Of a DNA stretch of 64,000 nt, positions 3,178 through 53,126 are shown in pieces. Origin of the DNA: Chloropicon primus (lineage: Eukaryota). The DNA lies in assembly GCA_023205875.1 (NCBI GenBank), contig CP060755.1, positions 310,001-374,000 on the forward strand, written 5' to 3'. Positions within the stretch are counted from its first letter, which is position 1; each line of letters begins with the position of its first letter. The position numbers and the translations under genes are program-made. A model generated the notes under the pieces. The model saw only the letters and a program-made list of their open reading frames with translations. It searched no databases and was not told the DNA's origin.

Positions 3178-4359
3178 TCAGACGTCATCAGTGTAGTCGT
3201 CGTCCTCGTCCTCCTCCACGCTGCTTCGTCCGGAGCTCGCGTTCAACTCCTGCTGAAGCCACTGCAAGATGTGAAGGTGGCCTTCTTCATCTGCCGTGTC
3301 ATAAATCTCCTCAGGGTCCCAGGGGCAAGGCGGATCCTGGCTTCGAAGCCACTGCAGAACGTGAAGGTGACCTCCTAGAGCTGCCCCAGAACAAGTCCCC
3401 TCGTCCCAATCACAAGGCGGGTCCTGGCTTCGAGCCCACTTGAGAACATCAAGGTGGCCTCCTTCAGCTGCCCATCCACAAGTCATTTCGTCCCAATCCC
3501 AAGGCGGGTCCTGGCTTCGAGCCCACTTGAGAACATCAAGGTGGCCTCTCAAAGCTGCAGCGTCACGAGTCTCCTCGTTCCAATCACAAGGCGGGTCCTG
3601 GCTTCGGAGCCACTGCAGAACGTGAAGGTGACCTTCTCGAGCTGCAAATTTACAAGTCCACTCGTCCCAATCACAAGGCGGGTCCTGGCTTCGAGCCCAC
3701 TGCAGAACATCAAGGTGACCTCCTTCAGCTGCACCAGCACAAGTCCTCCAGTTCCAATCACAAGGCGGGTCCTGGCTTCGAAGCCACTGCAGAACGTGAA
3801 GGTGACCTCCTAGAGCTGCCCAAGAACAAGTCTCCTCGCCCCAATCGCAAGGCGGGTCCTGGCTCCGAAGCCACTGCAGAACGTGAAGGTGGCCTCCTTT
3901 AGCTGCCTCATAGCCAGTCCACACGTCCCAATCGCAAGGCGGGTCCTGGCTCACCAACCACTCCATCACCTTGATGCTGCCCTGGAAAGCAGCGAGGTAC
4001 ATCAGGTCAGAGTCGTACAAGAAGCTGGAAGACTCGCCATTTCTCCACTTTTTCGATTCTCCCTTCTTCCTTTCGAACGAGCGAAACACCCACTCGAACC
4101 AACCCAAACTGAAGCAAGGCATCTGCTCGAACAACCTCTCTCTCGTCAGGTCCGTCTTCAGAGCAACCCTCGTCAGATCAGAGTTCGCCTCCGTCGCCGT
4201 CACCGCCTCGAGGAACGCCCTGCAGGTCAAGGCGAAGGCGATATGCTCGTAGTCGGGCAGCTGCCTCAAGACCAGGAGCCACAAGACCTCTGGCAGCACC
4301 TCCAACGCATCCCTCCCCTCCACCCTCTGCATCTTGCTCTCCATCGTCTCCTCCATCAT
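3178..4359 (-). CDS. F-box-like plus ankyrin-like repeat protein (about 9 27-aa repeats, WD.xTC.xAA.GGHLxVLQWxRSQDPPC)
   Basis: N-terminal LEVLPEVLWLLVLRQL..FALTCRAF (F-box-like); 81-bp tandem repeats at ~3250-3960; likely start MM at 4359. Confidence 0.85.
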   Translation of the reverse strand: MMEETMESKMQRVEGRDALEVLPEVLWLLVLRQLPDYEHIAFALTCRAFLEAVTATEANSDLTRVALKTDLTRERLFEQMPCFSLGWFEWVFRSFERKKGESKKWRNGESSSFLYDSDLMYLAAFQGSIKVMEWLVSQDPPCDWDVWTGYEAAKGGHLHVLQWLRSQDPPCDWGEETCSWAALGGHLHVLQWLRSQDPPCDWNWRTCAGAAEGGHLDVLQWARSQDPPCDWDEWTCKFAAREGHLHVLQWLRSQDPPCDWNEETRDAAALRGHLDVLKWARSQDPPWDWDEMTCGWAAEGGHLDVLKWARSQDPPCDWDEGTCSGAALGGHLHVLQWLRSQDPPCPWDPEEIYDTADEEGHLHILQWLQQELNASSGRSSVEEDEDDDYTDDV

Positions 4360-4578: not shown

Positions 4579-4701
4579 GGGGCTATGGTCTAGTGGTATG
4601 ATTCTCGCTTAGGGCGATTCGATCCTAAGATTCGATCCTAAGAAGTTCATCAACGAGCTATAATCTGCGAGCGGTCCCGGGTTCGATTCTCGGTAGCCCC
4701 C
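4579..4701 (+). tRNA. trnP-AGG: tRNA-Pro(AGG) with 51-nt intron (4615-4665) at canonical position 37/38
   Basis: Acceptor stem GGGGCTA/TAGCCCC, D-arm TGGTCTAGTGGTATGATT, anticodon arm CTCGC-TTAGGG..TGCGAG, T-loop GGTTCGATTC. Confidence 0.92.
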
Positions 4702-4790: not shown

Positions 4791-4896
4791 GACGTTAGTT
4801 ATACAAGGGTCACAACGAGATCGTAACGGCGGAGGACGGCGACTGACGTTAGTTATACAAGGATCACAACGAGATCGTAACGGCGGAGGACGGCGA
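4791..4896. repeat. 54-bp-period tandem duplication upstream of the recombinase ORF
   Basis: gacgttagttatacaagg(g/a)tcacaacgagatcgtaacggcggaggacggcga starts at 4791 and again at 4845 (1 mismatch). Confidence 0.95.
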
Positions 4897-5023: not shown

Positions 5024-7873
5024 ATGAGTTACCTCCTGGAATACTTCGGCTGCTGGTTGCCGACGAAGAAGAGGAGACTGACGAATACTGGGTCGTCATG
5101 TGAAGAAGGGGCTGGTGGCGCCACCCCGGCCGCGGTTCTCCAGGTGGGTGGCACCCAAGGATGGCGGGTGGCGCCCAAGGATTGTGGTGCCAATGTCTCT
5201 GTCTTCACCCACTTGCAGGGCAGCGGGCAGCCGTGCGGCGCGGTGGCACTCGGAACAAGCCTGGACACCAACGCTTGCACAGTGGCCCTGGCGATCTCCG
5301 CGGGACCTCATAGGGAGCGGGAGATGGCCGCCTTCGAGGAGAACGTGGATCCGACGACGCTTCTCAATGCGGATGGACTTATTGCCACTCTTGGCTTCGT
5401 AGACGAATTAGCTGGCCCGCGGCCCACCCTTGCACGCGAGGGTACACGGGCGGAGCGAACTCGCGAGCCTGAGGAGCTGACCCTGGTCCGCGTGGTCCGA
5501 GGCCGTGGCGGAGTCCACCTGGAGCGCGTTGAGGGCTTGAAAGAACTGACCCACTGCATCGTCTTCCTCCGCGAGTCCCTTGCGCAGGAGGGGCTTGGGA
5601 ACAGGCTCGCTGGTCAGGCGGCCACGATCTCAAGCGCGTTGCTCGGCAAAGATCTTCCTAAACAGGTGAAAGCATTTCGTTTCGTGGAGCTTGGGACCGC
5701 CAGCCGCTCGCGATGCCTCAAGGACCGCAAAGTTCTTACGAAAGCTCTTGCCCTTGCGAAGGAGAAGGGCGAGCCTTGCGCGCTTCTTGTAGCTGCCTTG
5801 TCGCGATTGTCGAGACGGTCACAAGCTGACGAGGACCTCGACTACCTTGCTGAGCGCGCAGGGCAGGCCTCTATACTGGCGTGTATCCCGACGTCCCATG
5901 CAGCAGCTTTGATTGGGGAGGAAAAGAAAGAGGAGCTCAAAAAGTACATGAGCAAGGCTGCAAGCACCTCGGACGGGCACGCCGTGTACTCGGCGTCGCA
6001 CTGCATGCTCAAGTCCGGCGCCACCCGTTGTTCTGTAGCATCGGGCCAACACACTTCTGAGGAACTTTGTCTCCTCGTCGAACACGTCGAGCACGTCCTG
6101 AGGCACAAGCTGGAGAATCTGGAGAAGCCGGGGGAGCAGAAGCACGGGAAACCCCTTCTCCTCGTAGGTATTGCCCGTACGTCGCCTGGAACTGACGTCG
6201 CCAAGTCTACTTCGATATATGTCCAACGGTGCCTACTCCTCCACGTCCTCCTCAAGGTGCGCGACAACCTTCAGAAGGATGTTGCGCTAAGCGGGAAACT
6301 GCCGGTGATTGAAATCACAATTGGGACCTTTGCAGAGAAGTGTGGAGGCTCGACCTCGGAGGAGGCTGCCGTCCAAGAATGGGTGAAGAAGGTCTGCGAC
6401 GAGGGCAAATACGCAGGGGGCGTTCTACTCTGCACCCGTGCAGATCGGCTTACAAGGGAGCTTGCGACACTCGGGACGCTCTTGGAAAGGTGCTGTAAGG
6501 CGAACATAGCAACGGTTGCGTGCTTGACAGAAGTGGATGCCGTCGTCACCGAGGAGAGACACGTTCAAGAGGCCGTAGCCCAGGTTCTCGCTGGAGATGA
6601 GGAGTATCTTCTTGGAAAGCGCTTTGTGGAGCAACGGGCGAGTGATCTCGTCCGCGCATGGAAGAACCAACCCACAGTTCGTGTGCTCGTCGCTGCTTGT
6701 TCCATCACGGAAGCGAACTACGACATCATTCTTCGCGAGGAGCACATGGAGTTCCTGGAGACCTACAGGCAATACTGCCACGTTCACTCCGTGAGGGACG
6801 AGTTGTTTGAAAACCGTGATGGACACGGCTTGGATGAAGACGCATTGAGCAGAGTCTTTGAGTACTTTGCGGATGCACTAAAGGGAGAACATGTCGATGT
6901 CGTGTTTGAGAATGAATGTTTCCCAGAAACCGCGATCTCTGTGACTCAAAAAGATTTCTTCGAATGCCCCTGCGCTGGTAAATGCTCTCGCAAGTCGTCC
7001 AGGACAACAGGCACCGCGAACACCGCTCCAGCACATACTCGATGCCTTTGTGCTTGTGACATGTGCAAGAGGAGTCGTCCTTGCATTCTGGTGGACAGCG
7101 ACGCCGAGGACGGCGGGGAGAGGGAGAGAGAGCTTCGCAAATTTGATGCCGCTGCATGTCCCTGTGGACCTTGCAGCAGCAGCCCCTCGAGCACTGGTAC
7201 GACAAGGAAGACACAGGCCAAGACCAACACGAAAGGGAAGAGGAAGGCCAAAGCAAGGAAGCCGATGAAGGAGTTTCCTCGACTTCCTACTACAGACGGT
7301 ACTCAAACCCTGCGCTGCATCTGCTGTGATGCTTTTCGTCGCCCTGAGTGCCCCTTGGTCAAAACAGGAGCTCTGACCCCGGTTCCTGGGGAGGAACGTG
7401 ATCGAGGTGGGCACAAACCCAATTACCTCTTGTCGAACTGGTGCTGGTACTGCCATCGTTTCATATTCAAAAGCGGCTTTAACCAGTGGTGTTCGTTCGG
7501 TTGCTTCTTGAAAGCCACGAAGTTCGTGGACAAGAAGGAGCTTTGGGACATGAGCAAGGAAATTGGCATGACACAACTGAAGAACACGATTGGCTTCTGG
7601 TTTTGTGTTCCGTGTACAAAGAAACCTGAGTCCGAGGAAGCCTTGATCGAGAAGATCCCCTCGATCCCCTTGATCCCAACCAAGGGTTCAAGGGGCTTGA
7701 GGTGCTTGTCCTGCAGTCATAACGATTGCAAAATCGGCAAGGGGTACAAGGAGAACGCAGAAGGAGGCGGCGTGAACGTTGGCTCCGGCCGGCAGAAGTC
7801 CGAGAACAGAAAGGCCAAAGAGGTAGTGATCCCGCATCCAATGCTCGTCAACATGATGCTACAGGACTCCTAA
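5024..7873 (+). CDS. Large protein with two tandem serine-recombinase (resolvase/invertase) catalytic domains and a Cys-rich C-terminus
   Basis: Domain 1: CIVFLRES..GLGNRLAGQAATI..FVELGTAS..DRKVLTKALALAK..LLVAALSRLSR. Domain 2: VGIARTS..STSIYVQ..FAEKCGG..VLLCTRADRLTRE. Many CxxC/CxC clusters follow. Intronless; first ATG 5024. Confidence 0.75.
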   Translation: MSYLLEYFGCWLPTKKRRLTNTGSSCEEGAGGATPAAVLQVGGTQGWRVAPKDCGANVSVFTHLQGSGQPCGAVALGTSLDTNACTVALAISAGPHREREMAAFEENVDPTTLLNADGLIATLGFVDELAGPRPTLAREGTRAERTREPEELTLVRVVRGRGGVHLERVEGLKELTHCIVFLRESLAQEGLGNRLAGQAATISSALLGKDLPKQVKAFRFVELGTASRSRCLKDRKVLTKALALAKEKGEPCALLVAALSRLSRRSQADEDLDYLAERAGQASILACIPTSHAAALIGEEKKEELKKYMSKAASTSDGHAVYSASHCMLKSGATRCSVASGQHTSEELCLLVEHVEHVLRHKLENLEKPGEQKHGKPLLLVGIARTSPGTDVAKSTSIYVQRCLLLHVLLKVRDNLQKDVALSGKLPVIEITIGTFAEKCGGSTSEEAAVQEWVKKVCDEGKYAGGVLLCTRADRLTRELATLGTLLERCCKANIATVACLTEVDAVVTEERHVQEAVAQVLAGDEEYLLGKRFVEQRASDLVRAWKNQPTVRVLVAACSITEANYDIILREEHMEFLETYRQYCHVHSVRDELFENRDGHGLDEDALSRVFEYFADALKGEHVDVVFENECFPETAISVTQKDFFECPCAGKCSRKSSRTTGTANTAPAHTRCLCACDMCKRSRPCILVDSDAEDGGERERELRKFDAAACPCGPCSSSPSSTGTTRKTQAKTNTKGKRKAKARKPMKEFPRLPTTDGTQTLRCICCDAFRRPECPLVKTGALTPVPGEERDRGGHKPNYLLSNWCWYCHRFIFKSGFNQWCSFGCFLKATKFVDKKELWDMSKEIGMTQLKNTIGFWFCVPCTKKPESEEALIEKIPSIPLIPTKGSRGLRCLSCSHNDCKIGKGYKENAEGGGVNVGSGRQKSENRKAKEVVIPHPMLVNMMLQDS

Positions 7874-7920: not shown

Positions 7921-8230
7921 AAAGCTGAAATATTCTATCCTCCTCCACCACACTATGTATGTCTCCGTTGACCGCCGGCACATCGTTCGTTCGTTCGTTC
8001 GTTCCATCCTCAGCCAATCCTGGCTGGCGGTCCTGGCTTCGAAGCCACTGCAGAATTTCGAGGTGACCTCCTTCAGCTGCCCAAGAACAAGTATCCTTGT
8101 CCCAATCACAAGGCGGGTCCTGGCTTCGAGCCCACTGCAGAACATCAAGGTGACCTCCTTCAGCTGCACCAGCACAAGTCCTCCAGTTCCAATCACAAGG
8201 CGGGTCCTGACTTCGAGCCCACTGCAGAAC
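7921..8230 (-). pseudogene. 5'-truncated ankyrin-repeat gene fragment (~2.5 repeats plus tail), paralogous to 3178-4359
   Basis: 8101-8209 is identical to 3666-3774; reads VLQWARSQDPPCDWNWRTCAGAAEGGHLDV...LRSQD; no in-frame start upstream. Confidence 0.85.
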
Positions 8231-10802: not shown

Positions 10803-11218
10803 GCGGGGTGATGGGTTGTGGACGATGAAAGGAGCAGCCTTGCGTGCCTACACGTTTCAAGACTCCAGATTCTGACACAGCCCACCAACCAAGCCTCGCC
10901 ACCGCCGGGGTGAGCTCCGACACGCCTGCATGAAAGTGTTTTACACTCGGCGCGGCTCCTCCCTCTTCGGGTAGGGGAGTAGCGCGGACGGTTTCGATTC
11001 GCATGGGGGAGGGCCGCAGATTACAATCGAAGGTACTTGATGGGGGTTACCCCTGCGTGATGGTATCGTATTAATCACAATGATGTTACAGCACGCAGAC
11101 GCAGCGCAGGCCGTAGCTCTGGCGAAGTCCTGCGGGTGCGTCCATGAGTGTGAGCGCTCTCACCAGCGATCACACGAGGATTCTAAATTTGCAATTTGCT
11201 AAACTGATATGTGTATGT
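10803..11218 (+). repeat. Structured non-coding dispersed repeat, copy A
   Basis: Colinear with 50657-51135; its 3' half matches the reverse complement of 45076-45318. Confidence 0.9.
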
Positions 11219-28271: not shown

Positions 28272-31200
28272 ATGGTTGGGCTTCGGGTGGCCACGAGGGT
28301 GGCCTTCGTCATGGCCCTGACCCTGTTTTTGGCCCATGGTCCGACCTTTGGTGCGTGCAGCTCTTGGTCCTACTTCACGATAATAGGGAAGGACAACTCG
28401 CCCCTCAAAGTGGGATGTCAGGGTCAGGCATATCAAAGCTTACGGCCGTGGGGGAAGGGAGAAAAGATAGTCCAACTGGAAATAAACACGATCTGCAAAC
28501 AGCAAGAATGGCATAACTACTTCCACGACCTTGACAAGGAAACGGTAAGGCTGACTTTGCGACCACGACGGCCGCAGCGGTTTTTTTTTGTGTGTGTGCC
28601 CTTCACCCGTACTCACACCCTCACCCGCGCACGACTCTTCTTTGTTTTCTGAACGACACCAGGTGAAAGACAAGATCGTGCTTGTTCAGTTCTCAGACTG
28701 CCTCGAGACTTGGTTTCAGTACGAGCAGACCTTCTTCCACGTCACTGCGTACTTGTCGCTACAAACCCAAGCCCGTGGAATAATCATTGCAGAGCGCTAT
28801 CGTGGGAAGCTACCAGATAGCGTTGTGATAGAGGAAAAACTTCACGATTTCATGGATCCCGTTTGCATCATAACGGGCGAGTCGTATGAACAGATGATCG
28901 ACGCTTTCAGTACGAGCAAAAGTTTTGACGGCACTTTGGAAGCAGACATGTCCTCTGTCCTTTTTTTTAGTTCTGATACGAGCGACGAGGAGGAAGTGTC
29001 TGCATACGAGTCTTCTATACGCCAAGCGCTCAAGATGTGGGAGGCCATGTCGGGTTCAAATGCCGAGGCATTGCAAACTTTCACGGAGGCCTTTGAGTTT
29101 TACTATCCTCTCAAGCACTACCATAACGGCAGCTTGTTCGAGATGCCCCTGCGAAGAGCGGAAACCTTGGGGCCTCGCACTAGCCCTGAAATATCAGCGG
29201 AGCTCGTTGTGGCAGAGCTGACCGACGCCTGCTTCCAGGACAGTTACTCTGCGTGTTCTAGCTGTTTTCAGGCGAACAGTTCGGAGAGGTTCCAAAACGC
29301 GGAAGCGCTGGATGGAAAGGTTGCTCTTGTTCTTGTAGACGCCCCGTGGCTAGGTGTGCAAGGGTGTTTTCGCAACTATGAAGATTATCCCATCCTGCTG
29401 CAGGAACTAGGAGTGCGTGGGGTGATTCTCACAAGCACAAGCTTCAGCCTGCCACAGGAAGCGTGGCCTATGGTGGATGTGAAAATTCCCGTGTTTTCCA
29501 TACCATACAATTATGGTGTTTACTTGCGGAAAGGTTTTTTTGATGCAAGGCCCACGGACATGCTTGATGATGTCAGCGTTTTTCCTTTCCCCGAAGGAAA
29601 CACTGAGGTTGTCCTTCCAGAATACGGCGAGGAACTGGACTTGCAGAAAGCAATGATGATGAAGCTCCTGAACGAGTATCGCCACCTGCCACTTGGATGC
29701 ATGCCTACGACTGAAATTTGGCATACCAGAGAGAAAGGGTGGGACAATAACCAATGGACAGAAATGGCCAGGGTCGCGTTCGATGTGGGGGATGCTTTCG
29801 GGCATCTTTACTGCCAAGACAGTTCCTTTACAATCTGGGAAACAGCTCCTGAAAATCTTGACGACCAACGTACTCAGGGTGATGCAGGTGGTGTCCAGCC
29901 CCCCATTTTACACTACTCAACGTTTGTCGGCTCATTGGATTCTTTTTATTCGTCAGCTTACACCGGCAATTCCATAGAGAACCAAAGCTGTTTTGATTTT
30001 CCTGAGTCCGTGAGTGTGGGCAACGATGGTGTTGCGAAATGGGTGGGAATGAGGGTACTCCGCATGGAGCCCGCAGATCACTGCGTGCCTACGCCATATC
30101 ATTTGGAAAAACTCTCAAGAAAGATAGCTTTTTGCAGACAAGATTGTGGCACGAAAGGCTTCTTGAAACCACTTGAGAATGCCACGACGTTCGAAGATGT
30201 GGCTCTGTATATGGACGTTTCAGATCACCCGTGCTTGCCCACTGCAACCATGTACCTTGAACTTATTGAGGGACTTATCACAAAGGGTCAGACAAACGTC
30301 CGGGTGTTGCTCATTGCTCATGATTCCAAGATCATGACCTTTGACAACTCCACAAAGCCTAGCTTTCCAATCATCAATTTGGGAAAGAAGGCTATTTTGG
30401 GATTCAGGCAGTTTTTCTCTCAGCCAGACAGCAACAAAAAGGAAGTCTACATATCTCGAAACGCAGTGGAACGGGAATCTATTCCCTTTTTCAACTTGGA
30501 CTACATGAGGAACCTCCTGCTTTCCAATGCGTTGGTTGAAACGACGGCAGAAGGAAACGATCAAAGTCATGCTTACAAGCTCTTGTCAACTCCCTTGCGT
30601 GATTATTATGACACATTCGTAGACAAGTTGTGCAGTACAGGCAAGCTTAAAGCAGCAAGGATCATTCATCCACAGAGTTCTGAAAATTTTAGCGAACTTC
30701 ACGAGGAAACGTACCGTAGAACACCCATCGAGTTAGCCGGAGCAGCGAAGGAGAATGCCCCTGACGCTTTTGTTTCTGGCGAGGTGGTCCTTGTTGAAGC
30801 ACACATCAATTGCTCGATGTTGGATTGTAAAGATTGCCACGAGACGTTCAGTGACTATGATCTTAGGGGGAAGATTGCTTTCTTTCCATTCAGTGCTGCT
30901 GACGAGGGCTTCCTCGAAACTCTTAGTCCTTTTTTCAATGCAATCGATCAAAATGAAACGGTCCGAGAACTTTTGAGGCCACAGGAGGAATTTTTGGAAA
31001 GTTTCACCGAAGGAATGTTTGACGCATACCGTAGCTCTTGTCTCCGCCCTGTGTACAAATTGGTTGAGTTGTTGAAAGCCAGGGGAGCGAAAGCTGTTGT
31101 CTTCGGAAACTTCAAGTACCAGATTTTTGAAACGACTCTCCTCGGGAGTCAACAACAAGTTGGGACAAAAATCCCGGTGTTCAATATCAACAACATGGCA

Positions 31201-31710
31201 AGTGCTGAGTGGTACAGGATTTTGAAGCACACAAACGGGCGTCTCGTCGTGGACATTGGTAGCTGCACCCGCATTTCTGCGTTGACTCTAGGACACGACA
31301 TTCAACAGATCCGAAATCCTCACCCTCACCATACGAGTGAAGCACTTCACAGGACGGAGCGAGTTGGTGGAGCACTGCCTGGACAGGGAATGATTATCGC
31401 AACAAGTGAGGCCGAGGGCAACAAGGAAAAGGGAGGGGAGGACAGCGAGTGGGCTTACAAGCTTGCGCTTTGGTGCGGAGTTGCACTTGTGTGTGTTGCC
31501 GCCTTTGTCGTAGGCATGTTGATTAAGCACTACCGGGGAAGGCTCTCGCTGACCAGGGCAAGGGGGCAGACGGTCGATCTGTCAACGTTGCCAGCGGCCC
31601 AGAGGAATCAGAACACTCAGCAACGTAGTCCTTACGTCATCTACGAGCAAGGCACATACGGGTGGGGACCTTTCAGAGACAGAAGCCGAAGAAGTCGATC
31701 GTACCTATAG
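28272..31710 (+). CDS. Large type-I membrane protein with several PA (protease-associated)-like domains; intron 28545-28662
   Basis: Signal-like N-terminus; repeated PA-like motifs (LDGKVALV..GVRGVIL..IPVFSI; LRGKIAF..GAKAVVF..IPVFNI); TM LALWCGVALVCVAAFVVGMLI. Confidence 0.65.
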
Positions 31711-44789: not shown

Positions 44790-45075
44790 CGCGTCCCCTC
44801 GAAACGACCGACGACAACGACGACGACGACGACTCAAGAAACACGACACGTCCGTTCCCCCGCGCAACTGACCGCCTGACGCGCGAAACCTCTCCGCCAA
44901 GTCCTCGCAAAGCTTGGGCCTCGCACCCTCGGCGTCCCTCTCCTCCCCTCGCGCGATCCGATCGACCACCAACGACAACCACTGTGCGCGTCCGTTCGCT
45001 TTCCCACCACTCAAGAACAAACTCCCCGTCTCGAATTAGCCGGGGAAGGTGAAGCCCAGATAGGTGAGGCATATG

Positions 45076-45318
45076 ACATATTACATCAGATTTAGCAAAT
45101 GAATCCTCGTGTGATCGCTGGTGAGAGCGATCACACTCATGACGCTACCCGCAGGGCTTCACCAGGGCTTCGCCCTAGCTTCGGCCTGCGCTGCGTCTAC
45201 GTTGCTTCTCATCATTTGATTACACGATACCATCACGCAAAAGTTACCCCGGAGGGTTACTCCCATCAGGTACCTTCGATTGTATTCTATGCGGCCCTCC
45301 ACCAGCGAATCGAAACGC
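45076..45318 (-). repeat. Structured non-coding dispersed repeat, copy B (5'-truncated, inverted)
   Basis: Reverse complement is nearly identical to 50884-51135. Confidence 0.92.
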
Positions 45319-46034: not shown

Positions 46035-46550
46035 CCTCGCGCTCTCTGCGAAAGAAAAAACAAACAGACACAAACCTCGTTCAGCTTCAGAGTCCCAATC
46101 GAACCAAACCAAACCGAACCGAACCGAACCGTCTCTCCCTCCTCGTTTCCTTCGCGGTTGGGCTCGAACAAAAGCGTAACGACGGCAGGAAGCGTGGCGT
46201 GGACCATGCCTCTCGGTCCCCCCCCCCGCCTCCCCCACCGACACCTTACCTCCTTCAAGTACTCGCGAACGAAACACGAACAACCTCCGACTCTCTCCGT
46301 CGTCGGCTCTCAAGTGAAGTGGATAAGGCAAATCGAAAGCCTAAAGCCAAAGCCTTGAGGAGGAGGAGGAGGAGGAGGACCGAAGAGGAGGAGAGAGGGA
46401 GGGTGTGGGTGTGGGGCCACAGCAATACACTTCGACTCGGTTCGGTTCGGTTCTCAGGCTATGATCGCCTGGCGGGCGACCGGCTGGATCGGTTCGGCGG
46501 CCCAGCTGTGGGGGTTGGAGTGATTCGGGTTTGCACGAGTGCTCGAAGGG

Positions 46551-47459
46551 ATGAGACCCCGCGTCACGTCCCTGGTGGGAAACGAGGGGCGGTACGGCCT
46601 GGTGCACTGTTGTGCAATCTGCCTGATTTACGTGGGAAGCGTGCAGGGGTGTCGGACTCTCGTCAGGCCGTCGTCCAGAAACGCGCCGAGGCAGATCGCT
46701 GCGAGGGCGGTCGCCCTGGTCCTGGTGTGCTCCGTGTCGTGGCTCCCCCTCTGGGTGACTCTGCGAAGAGCGAAGAGGGCTGATGGGGACTCGCTGGCGA
46801 GCGAGACTCTGCTTCGCCTGGGGATCAAGTCCAGCGGAATCTTGCGCGGGGTTGCGTTCGCGGAGCTTTCGGCCGTCGCACTTCTCCTTGCTCCCGCAAT
46901 CGAGAGGGTCGGCGAGGCCCTGCAGCGCTGCCGGGGGCGGCAGCGCGCCGGTGCCGGCTGGCCCGCGCTCTGGGAAGGCGGTTCGGCTCTGGAGTTCGCG
47001 AGGGACGTCGTTTTCTCCCCCATCACGGAGGAGTTCTGCTTCAGGGGGTGCATGTGCTCGCTCCTCGTGGCGGAAGGCTACGGCGTGTTCGCGGTGTTCG
47101 CCGTCACCTCTCTCCTCTTCGGCCTCGCTCACACCCACCACCTCATCGAATTCCTTTCGCCGGGTCGGCTGGAGCGCGGCGCGTCTCACCGCCAGCGCAG
47201 GGGCGCGCTCGGGAAAGCGGTGGCCGAAACGGGGGTCCAGGTCGGCTTCACCACCCTCTTTGGACTCTACGCCTGCAGAATCTTCTTGCACACGGGGAGT
47301 CTGGCGGCTTGCATCCTGGCGCACATGACAGCCAACTTTCTGGGTCCTCCCGACTTCGAATCGATCGCGAGCAGCCCAAGGTACGCCGCGTCCACGTTCC
47401 TGGGCCTCCTCCTCTTCGGCTTGCTCGTATTCCAAGGCGTGCCCGAGCCCCTCCCGTGA
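46551..47459 (+). CDS. RCE1: CAAX prenyl protease 2 (RCE1/Abi family)
   Basis: SPITEEFCFR, FGLAHTHH, TTLFG.Y, H...NFLGPPDF. Confidence 0.88.
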   Translation: MRPRVTSLVGNEGRYGLVHCCAICLIYVGSVQGCRTLVRPSSRNAPRQIAARAVALVLVCSVSWLPLWVTLRRAKRADGDSLASETLLRLGIKSSGILRGVAFAELSAVALLLAPAIERVGEALQRCRGRQRAGAGWPALWEGGSALEFARDVVFSPITEEFCFRGCMCSLLVAEGYGVFAVFAVTSLLFGLAHTHHLIEFLSPGRLERGASHRQRRGALGKAVAETGVQVGFTTLFGLYACRIFLHTGSLAACILAHMTANFLGPPDFESIASSPRYAASTFLGLLLFGLLVFQGVPEPLP

Positions 47460-47614
47460 GTCGGTCGTGCGGAGCCGAACAACAAGTCGAGAGACGGAAT
47501 GGTCACCGAGAGTGACAAGAGCGCGCGTGTGGTCGGCCATTGTCAATTGCCTTTGGACAACCACGGGACCCAAGCTCCCTATTTGTAATGTAATCCAAAT
47601 ATCTTATCCATAAG

Positions 47615-48060
47615 ATGGGTGGAGGAGGAGGGTATCGTCGTTCCCGGGAGGGTTGTTGGACGTTCAGGGGGTCCGCGCACTATCAGTTCCACCTCGTCAA
47701 GTCCTCTGTCGCTCGCCAATACGTCCCTCCGGTAAGTTCCCAACAAGCAAACCTTCCTGTCGCACTCACCATGGACTGAACTGAACTGACTCCCCCCCAC
47801 ACACACACACACGCACGCACACGCACGCACTCTCTCACTCTGTGTACGGACGCTTGGATGATGGGATGGGATGGGACGCGCTTGCCGTCGTCGTGCAGGA
47901 GATGCCTCTGGTGGAGTTGAACGGGTACACACTGGGAGGCTTCTACTACGCGAACTACGAGGATAGCCCTGCCGGTCCGATGGATGAGCTCGTGGTGCTG
48001 TCCGGACTCGTTTGGAATGCCCCGACGTCCTGTGCTTGGGCCTCCCACGTCCTCCTCGAT
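47615..48060 (+). pseudogene. NXD1: NEOXANTHIN-DEFICIENT 1-like gene, 3'-truncated at the Fanzor element; intron 47732-47898
   Basis: WTFRGSAHYQFHLVK|..LVELNGYTLGGFYYANYEDSPAGPMDELVVLSGLVWNAPTSCAWASHVL; similarity then ends and no C-terminal half was found in the window. Confidence 0.75.
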
Positions 48061-48061
48061 C

Positions 48062-48165
48062 TCAAGAAAGATCTTATCCAGTGTCCTGCTTGGTTTCAAC
48101 CTGGATCCATAGCCCTTGCCGCTACAGAGGGCGTCGCAGCGCTGGCGGCCAAATCTCGCGTGGGA
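48062..48165 (-). ncRNA. Putative Fanzor omega-RNA scaffold / element right end (boundaries approximate)
   Basis: Overlaps the Fanzor stop; minus-strand stems CGCTGCG/TGTAGCG and ATCCAG/CTGGAT enclosing GGT-TGAA-ACC; position is typical for TnpB/Fanzor. Confidence 0.45.
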
Positions 48166-50171
48166 CAGACCAATTTTGTGCATGGAGGAAAGCACTGGCG
48201 ATGGCGAGGATGTTGTCCGAGCCGTTATCGTCGCGGGGCACTTCCATACTGCATTTGGGGCAGGACAAAACTCCGTACTGGGGACGTCCCTTCTTTGATG
48301 GTGGTCCGTTTCCTCGGCTTCTATCACTCTTGTGCACTCTCCGCAGCGCAGTGGAGATGTTCTTCTGAGAGCATGCTGCGCACATCTTGGAGGTGTTGTA
48401 TTCATCGACGAAGAAGAATCTCCCTGGTGTGGTCTTCGTCACCAAAAACCTTTTGAGCCCGATGCAAGGCCCGGGAGGGCGTCCCCTGATGCCAGAGGGG
48501 AAGTTTGCGGCTCCGCAGAAGACGATGTGTGACGCCGTCGGGAAGAGTTTGCTTGCTATGAACTCCATAGTTCGCTGCTTTCGCCCAAAAGTCTCCAACC
48601 CTTTTCGACGCCAGCGCCGTTGCCCCAAAAAAATCGATGGCGTTGGAGAGGAAGGTGAGCCGGGTCCCAATCGCCGCCTGGAGGCGATCTACACTTGTGA
48701 GCTTCAGAGAAATGGCGCGGTCGTTCAATCTCTGTTGGAGATTGTTGGGGGCTCTGCTCAGCCACTGGTGTGCCAAAATATTCCTCTTCGTGAAACCACA
48801 GCGGTCGCGGTAAGCGGAGAGGTGAAGAGAAAAGGTCCTCTTCCTCCCCCTCTCCAGAATGTTCGCGTAGACGACAAAAATTCGGCCGGGATCAACGCCC
48901 ACGGTGTTCCGGGGATCGAACTGAGAAGGCTTGGTGGCACACCGCTCCCCTTGGCCTATATAGTTGTTGTCGGGACGAGCGAGGATCACCTCTTCGACAA
49001 CGACCACGACGCTGAGGCCATCGGTTCGAAAGTGCCTAGCGAATGCCTTGGTACGTCCATTCGTGTGGCCCTTCTTGGCGATGTTGTTCACCTTCTTGGT
49101 GAAAATCTTCTCCCACCCACGGCCACCATCATAGCCCCAGAGTTCCAGGCAAGATCGCGAGACATTGATCATTGGATACTGCACCCGGCAGACAGGCACC
49201 AGAGTGAAACGCTTGATCGGAAGGTCCGAGGCCTCTACCGTTTTGAGCATCATATACCTGAACACGACCATGTTTCTCTCTTGCTCCGCGGGGTCGAGAA
49301 CGTTGTCGGTGCCGTGCATAAAGTCTGCAACGCCAAAGCCCTGAACGAGGGCCAGCTCGTTGTGGTAGTGTTGAACGAGGTCGGGGCTCCGGGGCTGCGA
49401 CTCGCTCAAAAGGGCTGCTCGGAGAGCGGCAGCCTCGGATTTGTTCAGTTGGTACTTTGCTCTCAGGTATTGCTTCATGTGATTGAAGGTCCCGTACTTG
49501 AGGAAGTTTGACCAATTCGTCCTGAGAACTTGTGCAGCTTCCGTGATGACATGCGACAGGAGCGCCCGCGATGGCAGACGCAGAGAGGTCTCGGCAGCTG
49601 TGGCGGCCTGAACCAACGCCGCCATGGATGCCTGGAGCAATGTCCACTCCTGTGACGTTGGTTCCCTCGAATTGGGCGTGTGGGAGACGGTGCGGAGGTA
49701 GTGACCTATCGAAACCCGATCCATCGCTGGAACACACCTCCAAAACCTCCTCTTGAGGAGTTGGATGTCCGCCACCGGCCCCCCCTCCCGCTCAGCCCTG
49801 AGTTGATTGAGCTCAGTCACCATCTCTCCGCACCGACGGTGAAAGGTTTCGAGATCAGCAGAAGCCCCGGGCAGTTCCCCAAGCCGACGAGCATGGTGGA
49901 GGGCCATCAACACCGTGCCGAGATGGGTTATCAACCCCATTCTTCTTGAGGCATCCTCCAATTCGACCCCAAGGCTGTCCCGCAACCTGGGCTGGAGAGC
50001 TGAATGGAGACCGATCTTATACGTCCTAAAAATTTTTTTCTTCTTCCCCTTCTTCTCCTTCTCCTTCTCCTTCTTCCCCTTCCTCCTCTTTGAATGGGAT
50101 CGGCGAGGAGAACGCGAACCACGTAGACGCTTGGCAGTAGGACGTGAGGTCGAAGGGCCGTCGGAGGTCAT
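48122..50171 (-). mobile_element. Fanzor (eukaryotic TnpB-like RuvC nuclease, Fanzor1-like) gene with one frameshift near 48623-48633
   Basis: FRTDGLSV, RuvC-I VGVDPG, bridge-helix-like WRRKGLETFGRKQR, RuvC-II VDEYNTSKMC, CxxC..CxxC, RuvC-III RDDNGSDNI; basic NLS-like N-terminus. Confidence 0.88.
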
Positions 50172-50262
50172 GGTGTCGAAGTAGAGTTAATGTGGAAGTG
50201 CCCAGCCCCCCTCCCTCCCCCCCTCTCTCCTCTCCTCTCCTCTCCTCTCTTTTTTTGATGTT

Positions 50263-50325
50263 GTGGCTGTGGCTGTGGCTGTGGCTGTGGCTGTGGCTGT
50301 GGCTGTGGTTGTGGCTGTGGTCGTG
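50263..50325 (+). repeat. (GTGGCT)n microsatellite
   Basis: About 10 hexamer units upstream of the Fanzor ATG. Confidence 0.9.
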
Positions 50326-50656
50326 GAAATTTTGAAAGTGTCATCGGAGACCACGACCCTCACCCTCAGTTGTGAACGTCCGTCGTCGCACCAGGCCGGT
50401 CGCTTGCCCGAGCGACCGGCCTGCCCGAGCGACCGGCCTGCCCGAGCGACCAGCACTTCCCTTGGCGACGCCGTGTGCCCATCACCATGGTGTGCCCAGC
50501 CATGATGAAGCTGGGCTTCATTAGTCGAGACTGAGAGGGGCTTGCGTTCTCGTTTTTTGTTTCCTTGTGTTTCTTTTTTAAGTGAACGCGCCCCCATAGT
50601 CGAGGCCACAGCTCGAAGACTCAAAGAGCGTGCGAACTCGACAGTCCCTGGCATCG

Positions 50657-51135
50657 GCGGGGTGATTGGTTGTGGACGATGAAAGGAGCAGCCTTGCGTG
50701 CCTACATGTTTCAAGACTCTTGATTCTGAAACAGCCAACCAACCAAGCCTCGCCACCGCCGGGGTGAGCTCCGACACGCCTGCATGAAAGTGTTTTACAC
50801 TCGGGGCAGCTCCTTCCTCTTCGGAGTGAGAGTAGTCCGGATGGCTCTCTACATTGGATGGAAGTGTCACCTTCCATTCTAAGGCGTTTCGATTCGCTGG
50901 TGGAGGGCCGCATAGAATACAATCGAAGGTACCTGATGGGAGTAACCCTCCGGGGTAACTTTTGCGTGATGGTATCGTGTAATCAAATGATGAGAAGCAA
51001 CGTAGACGCAGCGCAGGCCGAAGCTAGGGCGAAGCCCTGGTGGAGCCCTGGTGGAGCCCTGCGGGTGCGTCATGAGTGTGATCGCTCTCACCAGCGATCA
51101 CACAAGGATTCATTTGCTAATCTGATGTACTATGT
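50657..51135 (+). repeat. Structured non-coding dispersed repeat, copy C (longest)
   Basis: Homologous to copies A and B; perfect 11-bp hairpin at 51076-51103. Confidence 0.92.
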
Positions 51136-51348
51136 AATCGTAATCCCTAATCCCACGGGAGGAAATTCCTAGAAGCCATTTCAGCCAAGAGATTGTCGGA
51201 GGAGCAGGGAGGCACGGAAGAGTCACTCGGAGAGAGAGGCCGTAGGGACGAGGAGGTGCGAGGGGGGGGACCATGGTGTGAGGACGGAGGGAACGCAAGG
51301 ACTGTGATTTTGCTTGCTTGTTTGCGCGGGAAGACCCTTGCGGAGGAC

Positions 51349-53126
51349 ATGGAGGGGGGAGGCGAGAGCCAGTTCCTGCAGTTTGAGCTCGAGCACGAGC
51401 TCAAGTGCCCGCTGTGTGGGGACTTTTTGAACGATGCGACGGCTACGGCGTGCTCCCACTCCTTCTGCAGGAAGTGCATACGGGCTAACTTGGACCAACA
51501 GGAGGGGGACACGAAGGTTTGCCCAGTTTGCAAGGTAAGGAGAGGGAAAGAGAGAAAGAGATGACGTGTGCGTCCGCGTGCGTTTCGTTCAAGTTCGGTG
51601 CTGACCCTTTGCCTTTCCGTTCTCCTTTGCTGCAGACTCACGTAGAGGTCGAAAGCCTGGCGAGCAACGAGAAGCTCAACAAGATTGCGTCGATATTCAG
51701 GGCGAAGCGGAGCTTGCAGAACAGGAGCACAGCGGCCGCGAAGAACGAGTTGGGCTACGAGATGTTCTACTACTTTCTGCAGTACACGAAGGCGAAGCAA
51801 GTTCAGCTTCTCCGTGAGGTGAAGAGCAACATTTTGTCCCTGGACCAGGACCTCAGCACCGTGAGGAGGCGGCTGGAAGCGAGCACCGGCATAGGACTCC
51901 GGGACCCCACCACCACGGGGGCGCCCGACCCGAGGCAGCTCGAGGTGATCAACCAGCGGGTGAGGGAGGACCTGCGGCACTACCCGCACTTGACAAGCAT
52001 TCTCCCGAGGCTCGATAACTTTTACGTGTACAACAAGAACGTCTCGGTCCTAGCGGGCTCGAAAAGGAAGGGTTGGGACGCCAGCAACTCGGTGAACGAG
52101 AACATCCAGGTGAAGCGGAGGGAGCAGTATGTCGACGGGGTAGCGGAGACCCTTTTGAACATATCGAAGCACCACAGGCTCAAGTTCGAGGTCGAGATTC
52201 CGTATGGCGACATGATGCAAAAGTCCGCAATTATTTCTAGCATTGGGTTTAACTCAAACCATGAGTGCTTTGCGACCGCTGGGGTCTCCAAGAGGATCAA
52301 AATATACGACTTCAAGAACGTGATGGAGGACAGGTTCAGAATTCCGTGCCCCATCCTGGAGCTCACGTGGCGGTCCAAGCTGAGCGACCTGGACTGGAAC
52401 AAGCAGGAGAAGTCTCTCCTCGCCACGAGTGACTACGACGGGATGATCTCTGTTTGGGACGTTGATTCGGGGGAAAACATACTGGAGTACGACGAGCACG
52501 AGAAGCGGGCGTGGAGCGTGAACTTTAGCAAGACGGACGCGAGCCTCCTGGCCTCAGGGAGCGACGACGGGACAGTCAAGGTGTACTCCACAAAGCAAAA
52601 CAGGAGTGTGCTGACTGTGGAGACTATGGCGAATGTCTGTTCCGTGCAGTACCACCCAACAAATTTTCACTACATGGCGATTGGGTGCAGCGACCACCAG
52701 GCGTATGTCTACGACCTGCGGAATCCAAACGAGCCCGTGGTGACCTTGTCTGGCCACAAGAGGGCCATCTCGTACGCGGCCTACAGCAAGGACAACGAGA
52801 TTATCACGGCGTCAACGGACAACACGCTGAGGCTGTGGAACGTGAACAATGGGGAGACGAAGAGGGTTCTGAGTGGGCACGAGAATCAGAAGCACTTTGT
52901 CGGCCTGGCCCTCAAGGATGACTGGGTGGCGGTCGGGAGTGAGACAAACGAGCTCTTTGTGTACAACAAGGCGCTGGATTCGCCCATACACCGGTACAGT
53001 TTCGACGAATCCAGCGAGATGCACAACTCCAACCATTTCATTAGCGCCACCTGCTGGAAGCCTCGGTCTGACATTATTCTGTGCGCCAGCAGTGACGGGA
53101 ACTTGAGGGTATTAAGGTTAGAGTAG
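51349..53126 (+). CDS. COP1: COP1-like E3 ligase (RING, coiled coil, WD40); intron 51534-51634
   Basis: CPLC..ATATACSHSFC..CI..CPVC; FATAGVSKRIK, EYDEHEKRAWSV, ASGSDDG, ASTDNTLRLW, GSETNE. Confidence 0.92.

Follow-up and report, generated by a model that had tools for sequence, protein, structure and literature searches.

A non-autonomous Fanzor1 element of Chloropicon primus with an over-represented promoter-side end and a fragment of the host gene NXD1 at its predicted guide

The DNA analyzed here is a 64,000-nt stretch of the Chloropicon primus contig CP060755.1, hereafter the window, and all coordinates are positions within it. Its minus strand carries a Fanzor1 gene without an intron (48122..50171), which reads through as 682 codons and is broken by one extra base at 48623-48633. 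The gene occupies two minus-strand frames. Frame A runs from an ATG at 50171 to a stop at 48402 and holds the basic stretches PTAKRLR (50141) and KRRKGKK..KKKK (50090-50031, lysine or arginine at 14 of 20 residues), the motif TDG (49025) and the aspartate of DPG (48893). In frame B (48688-48122) are found DE (E at 48403), CAAC (48382), CPKC (48262) and RDDN (first D at 48232). All motifs named by a first-pass annotation, which had called the gene a Fanzor nuclease, are present within two bases of the positions it gave, and its estimate of about 680 residues for the repaired protein agrees with the 682 read through with an X at the frameshift. It also described an NLS-like N-terminus; the basic motifs (50031..50141, minus strand) are indeed there, while nuclear localization is a prediction at the level of motifs. 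The database gene models of the family start at Met117 and thus do not include these stretches. As had been noted, no transposase ORF is adjacent; the neighbors are an Rce1-like protease and a RING-WD40 gene, presumably COP1, which flank the element interval. The first pass overlooked two features described below, a truncated piece of a host gene on the 3' side and the recurrence, elsewhere in the window, of the non-coding DNA upstream.

The assignment to Fanzor was borne out and could be narrowed to Fanzor1. A match to Pfam PF07282 (E 1.2e-7, above the Pfam cut-off) speaks against chance similarity. A HMMER scan yielded 306 relatives at E<=0.001, and those outside the C. primus cluster were 22-38% identical over the matched stretches. 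We built a 96-row profile from the intact family member P0002 and 95 of the best 150 relatives, picked mostly by length. Its top three matches were SpuFz1 (E 1.4e-72), PpFz1 and GtFz1, with E-values from 1e-72 to 2e-58, and it matched Fanzor2 and TnpB over the zinc finger only. The three proteins also accounted for the top seven fold matches of the P0002 model (pLDDT 84.8), with TM-scores of 0.55-0.69 (SpuFz1, 0.64-0.69) and E-values of 6e-14 to 6e-11, versus 1e-4 for Fanzor2 and 1.5e-4 for TnpB. The TDG motif of the WED domain (49017..49025, minus strand), typical of Fanzor1, is well conserved in the profile (T in 90, D in 86 and G in 91 of the 96 rows), as are the RuvC-I aspartate in DPG (48891..48893, minus strand; D in all 96 rows, P and G in 94 each) and, within the stretch that comprises RuvC-II, the zinc finger CAAC..CPKC and RuvC-III (48230..48403, minus strand), the RuvC-II glutamate (95 of 96) and the RuvC-III aspartate (88 of 96). 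The glutamate stands six residues ahead of CxxC (DEYNTSKMCAAC..CPKC..RD), in frame in records P0002-P0005 and out of frame in the window copy. DPG, the shifted glutamate and TDG are described as Fanzor1 fingerprints in PMC10711439. Taken together, the profile, the fold model and these residues confirm the protein as Fanzor1. Other searches returned little: a single-sequence PDB search with the protein found nothing, the NCBIfam guided_TnpB model gave 16-18 bits only against a cut-off of 100, and two word-index searches recovered the C. primus cluster alone (one of 7995 and one of 5411 candidates). In scans of viral and metagenome sequences, 4 of 5 and 7 of 106 stretches, respectively, matched the protein, all at 23-37% identity, and the matched stretches bore no DNA likeness to the element ends.

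Within C. primus, the window protein is 96% identical (546/566) to a cluster of relatives, with mismatches mostly in the 15 off-frame residues before the X. The family is multi-copy: six Fanzor records belong to one assembly, under A3770 locus tags or QDZ accessions, and four records are intact (P0002-P0005). The protein family is already catalogued, and the protein alone is ordinary. The tree-table supplement of PMC10432273 labels the C. primus protein QDZ21418.1 as FZ1 (node300). This protein falls in the same 90% cluster and has the lineage-marking residues 171, 174, 185, 213, 246 and 481 in common with the window copy; its table row is a 572-aa ORF alone, whereas the gene in the window extends 116 codons further at the N-terminus and contains the frameshift. 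Among the 25 C. primus "IS605" genes in the PMC6731263 supplement, none carries the locus tags of the Fanzor1 family, and most of them probably represent another family. The two supplements of PMC10530073 contained no Chloropicon row, and PMC12633428 only mentions C. primus Fanzors. Searches of Creative Commons literature and bioRxiv returned no description of the element's ends. What we report is thus a broken copy of a known protein family, within an element whose anatomy is undescribed in the literature searched.

The break lies in a T7G4 run (48623..48633, minus strand) that is one base longer than in intact copies and pushes RuvC-II, the zinc finger and RuvC-III out of frame. At this point the protein sequence of intact records is FFGQRR (P0002, P0004, P0005) or FLGQRR (P0003), which corresponds to two alleles, one base shorter in each case. 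Contigs from all four of the sequencing runs compared lack one letter at 48623; however, they carry the majority letter at other differences too and are therefore not informative on the window copy. The truncated product is on record as an annotated protein. Record P0018, whose locus tag neighbors that of the chimeric protein P0016 described below, has the shorter run, yet is modeled as broken elsewhere. A real mutation and a consensus error are about equally probable origins of the extra base, and as it reads, the window copy probably makes no active nuclease. Of eight differences between the window copy and the majority contig, seven alter the amino acid. Recent copies thus give no sign of purifying selection, a pattern that is uninformative as to activity.

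Upstream of the gene, three 17-nt direct repeats that form a strong hairpin (50392..50454, plus strand; z -5.15) are followed by an element end that is over-represented and also found without Fanzor (50657..51144, plus strand). Two further copies of this end lie in the window, a short one at 45073..45318 (minus strand; 93% over 257 columns) and an older short one at 10803..11192 (plus strand; 75% in a gapped alignment of 471 columns, but 95% within the first 168 nt). The three copies have the outer end after an 11-bp hairpin (51076-51103 in the Fanzor-bearing copy) in common, and their start points differ. The hairpin lies 23-41 nt from the end in all three, in one case with a mismatch; among 63 pairs in the three copies no compensatory change was seen, and the oldest copy has lost one pair of the stem. 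Agreement among the window copies is lost at about 51126-51144, and a second copy in the run contigs agrees up to 51144. Contig depth is a rough copy count, and no contig spans the whole element. In run X1 the depth across the gene was 804, compared with 135 and 167 to either side, and on single contigs it climbed toward the promoter side (804, 929, 1144, 1133). Of 55 loose ends and 319 pieces, 24 and 32 were listed, and among these, loose ends on the inner side fell at 49782, 50880, 50907, 51044 and 51071. In contigs of the RNA-like runs X3 and X4, the 5' part of the Fanzor gene continues from 49782 into other sequence, probably reflecting a derivative with an internal truncation. Published indels include a 78-bp deletion within one copy of the end repeat and, among the entries listed, no whole-element indel; the hairpin pattern had no match in viral contigs.

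Conventional marks of transposition were sought at this copy as well. None of the 19 inverted pairs within 46500-52000 joins the two element ends, and thus the window copy shows no terminal inverted repeat. A 13/14 repeat occurs at both outer edges, but it lies 16 nt outside the branch point and partly within sequence common to another copy. At the outer edges of the other two end copies, only 8-bp or gapped matches could serve as candidate target-site duplications. Neither an empty site nor a TAM was seen for the element, nor were Replitron-type direct repeats. A plus-strand omega-RNA in the upstream end repeat (local z -3.3 to -4.4) was considered and set aside, because it showed no covariation and the hairpins are accounted for as element ends.

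The opposite side of the element adjoins a duplicated 5' fragment of the host pigment gene NXD1 (47613..48051, plus strand; exon 47615-47731, intron 47732-47898, exon 47899-48051). The 435 bp past 48046 correspond to the beginning of NXD1: they start close to the ATG, include the intron and extend to the codons for His-Val. Since the intron is kept and the transcript contig of the upstream gene ends 16 nt before the ATG, the window locus is not native NXD1. Native NXD1 reads ASHVFVDKRS, whereas the window and the database proteins P0016 and P0006 read ASHVLLDLKK. In addition, spliced full-length NXD1 contigs (X3, X4) diverge from the window at 48060, with two other letters. These observations place the junction at 48046..48060 (plus strand), where 13 of 15 positions match native NXD1, the two differing positions having been placed by protein sequence comparison, and the crossover inside a 6-bp microhomology (48046-48051). 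The outer edge of the fragment is marked by two branch points (47613 and 47639) and, at 47597..47610 (plus strand), by a 13/14 copy of the element sequence 48067-48080, likely a templated insert or target homology; none of 252 AT-matched windows reaches 12/14, although this match was noticed after the fact. The ORF of the fragment (47899-48456, plus strand) continues in frame, antisense to the Fanzor 3' end, and P0016 and P0006, which databases annotate as an NXD1 protein, are chimeras of NXD1 and this antisense sequence.

The chimera occurs on two contigs of different length, 1.76 Mb for P0016 and 1.11 Mb for P0006, and native NXD1 is intact on a contig of 1.48-1.50 Mb. The fragment has a depth of 547-584; relative to the flanks, its depth is 3-4-fold in X1 and 2.5-3-fold in X2. 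The two locations and the raised depth together indicate that the captured flank was copied along with the element.

Between the Fanzor stop and the junction lies a block of 76 nt (48046..48121, minus strand). Contig X2-12 starts at 48046 at full depth and runs unbroken to 48890, indicating that the copies represented have all sequence in common down to 48046, 76 nt past the stop. In SpuFz1, a 75-nt scaffold separates the stop from the element end and is followed by a 14-15-nt guide. By analogy in length, the shared block is likely the omega-RNA scaffold. Its predicted fold has two main stem-loops, of which the second extends to 48050, with a stability that does not differ significantly from shuffled sequences (z -0.3 to -1.1; 28 of 200 shuffles fold as well). 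Rfam gave five matches, all far below the gathering score, and no omega-RNA or hammerhead match. Fanzor contigs are present in X4, which we guess to be RNA, and in X3, where a spliced intron was seen. As the element tail is fused to a piece of NXD1, the predicted guide would point at NXD1: it would consist of the last 15 nt of the fragment on the minus strand, antisense to NXD1. Native NXD1 is unchanged over this predicted target.

Beyond 48046, the listed pieces show two types of flank, a 142-nt tail (DNA run X2, as well as X3 and X4) and the NXD1 fragment (window). This raises the alternative that the true right end lies at least 142 nt further on, and that in the window copy a template switch into NXD1 removed this end together with some of the omega-RNA, leaving a doubly dead fossil without a guide. 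The tail is the sole alternative flank listed before 48046 and must be common to several copies. Moreover, Fz1 RNAs span 75-150 nt according to PMC11423790, and the 13/15 homeology together with the templated 14-mer is typical of repair. However, two contigs carry the NXD1 flank as well, and a tail common to several copies therefore does not have to be internal to the element; 76 nt fits the SpuFz1 length; and the 30 visible letters of the 142-nt tail resemble, by inspection, the end of a coding sequence. We consider this alternative unlikely, though the strongest of those weighed here.

The likeness between element and NXD1 across the junction also admits a reading in which the scaffold ends at 48061-48063 in a 4-bp second stem like that of PpFz1, and the 15 nt at 48060-48046 serve as a fixed guide. 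On this view, Fanzor would have cut NXD1 at a near-match of 13/15 positions that includes all 5 nt of the seed, and the chimera would have arisen when the break was repaired from the element, as a guide-directed rearrangement. When the last 15 nt are left out, the fold does end in a 4-bp stem at 48064, at most 3 nt from the start of the NXD1 likeness, and the PpFz1 RNA is given as 75 nt with a 4-bp SL2 in PMC11423790; the longer fold is, however, more stable. At least seven of nine further matches after a shared 6-mer occurred in just 433 of 103152 random pairs. Against this, one of the 41 other places where this 6-mer occurs also attains 7/9, and the 15-mer is codon-like and has four other sites with at most two mismatches in the 64 kb, which makes the 13/15 likeness uncommon, not rare. 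Given, in addition, that there is no known TAM, we regard a fixed guide of this kind as distinctly improbable.

A further possibility is that a plus-strand RNA was copied by a non-LTR or Penelope-type reverse transcriptase, with 5' truncation and a switch to NXD1 pre-mRNA. Such a process would account for the one-sidedness of the truncation and for a captured piece that begins beside the NXD1 ATG. It also accords with a TGTAA motif at 51133, which we take to be the green-algal poly(A) signal, with a variant in the length of TAATCCC at 51140 and with the occurrence of TGTAAT(C)GTAATCC at either outer edge. Yet the NXD1 intron is retained, the three window copies have no poly(A) tail, Rfam gave no hammerhead, and telomerase is the sole reverse transcriptase in the roughly three quarters of the annotation searched. 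Reverse transcription is, on balance, a very unlikely origin.

The first-pass annotation had also named a distant serine recombinase as a candidate mobilizer by analogy to IS607. The ORF (5024-7873, plus strand) encodes 949 aa. A Pfam Resolvase domain (E 4e-10) sits in the middle of the protein, which also has a Cys-rich C-terminus and possibly a second stretch resembling a recombinase; the protein had no exact match in the protein collection and no PDB or NCBIfam match. Apart from the domain, the proposal can draw on the short copy of the element end 2.9 kb from the ORF. The comparison did not support it: ORF and element have no ends in common, only four matches of 13-34 nt (E 0.14-0.5), host genes stand between the ORF and the nearest short copy of the element end, and variable ends with captured flanks are unlike precise recombination. 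In addition, according to PMC10711439, IS607 elements contain no Fanzor1. That this recombinase mobilizes the element is scarcely credible. The ORF has parts of an ankyrin-repeat array on both sides and could be a mobile element in its own right. The array, with 87-bp units, belongs to an F-box/ankyrin gene (3229-4050, minus strand), and a second block of these repeats is present beyond the ORF, at 8012-8230 (minus strand). Just upstream of the ORF is a 54-bp tandem duplication (4791-4896, plus strand), and 320 bp upstream is a tRNA-Pro(AGG) (4579-4701, plus strand), detected only with the intron option on, whose 51-nt intron contains a short tandem repeat. Elsewhere in the window, a 1051-aa ORF (28555-31710, plus strand) lies in a low-GC stretch (46-52%) and has no Pfam match at E<=0.01.

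We favor, at about an even chance of being right, a 3.5-kb non-autonomous Fanzor1 element that is copied in a one-ended, Helitron2-like manner from its promoter-side end, with a duplicated piece of a host gene at the predicted guide. The rolling-circle mechanism is one that we infer from the pattern of the copies. An enzyme acting in trans would start at the hairpin end, near 51144, and halt at variable points. Early stops would produce the many short, end-only copies, while a few late stops would run past the end of the omega-RNA at 48046 into the adjoining flank. Non-autonomy had been proposed at first pass and fits this account; as for a RepHel or other partner enzyme, "helitron" and "resolvase" gave no hits in about three quarters of the published annotation.

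If copying proceeds in this one-ended fashion, copies would inherit a guide from an earlier site rather than gain one at each new site. In the lineage of the window copy, the inherited guide would be antisense to NXD1; other copies have a different tail of at least 142 nt in common. An intact sister protein loaded with the NXD1-guide RNA would be expected to bind native NXD1, and to cut it only if a suitable TAM is present; since native NXD1 is unaltered, regular or frequent cutting is unlikely. A stronger version, in which polarity is reversed, the promoter end is the anchor, heritable guides are aimed at host genes, the omega-RNA sends sister nucleases to NXD1 to cut or repress it, and the chimera itself perhaps arose from a guide-directed break, strikes us as quite doubtful.

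In the Fanzor and TnpB systems characterized so far, the newly acquired flank serves as guide, and each copy thereby targets its own empty site. If the family described here carries flanks along, the guide no longer fits the site of insertion, and retention of the nuclease is then beyond what the usual model can explain. With its small, sequenced genome, several intact paralogs and two natural guides, C. primus lends itself to tests of whether Fanzor naturally targets a host gene.

The window element differs from the C. primus Fanzor2* element, which comes from the same species, is likewise non-autonomous and likewise has no known partner, but is a cut-and-paste element with TIRs and a 5-nt TSD, according to PMC10711439. 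The proteins of Fanzor2* are also others: all nine Chloropicon rows in the supplement of that paper are UPR03652, UPR02811, UPR04245 or QDZ25014. As for Fanzor1 nucleases of known structure, SpuFz1, PpFz1 and GtFz1 (PDB 8GKH, 9CEx, 9CFx) have TDG, DPG and the glutamate before the zinc finger, as in the window Fanzor, at only 11-16% identity to its family. SpuFz1 has about 75 nt from stop to end, like the 76 nt of the window family. The Spu-1 element has 30-nt inverted repeats and a new guide per site, whereas in the window element no terminal inverted repeat was found and flanks are common to copies.

A precedent is provided by CRe-1/2/3, the Helitron2-Fanzor1 elements of Chlamydomonas. According to PMC3627910, they too belong to a green alga and are non-autonomous, with one end over-represented, the other side truncated, a hairpin near the fixed end and extra sequence captured at the variable end, and this pattern was interpreted there as one-ended rolling-circle copying. 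Elements of the CRe-1 type are marked by asymmetric terminal inverted repeats (ATIRs) with a 5' hairpin, by a TSD of variable length (7-19 bp) after a T-rich tetranucleotide, and by ends in common with a RepHel-encoding element. For the window element, neither a TTTT target nor an ATIR was seen within the window, the Fanzor gene is intronless, and a partner Helitron was not found in the annotation searched. Furthermore, the fixed end of CRe-1 is the 3' end that holds the RNA (PMC3627910, PMC10530073), and that of the window element is the promoter side; the analogy is thus inverted, the omega-RNA lying at the fixed end in CRe-1 and at the variable, flank-capturing end in the C. primus element.
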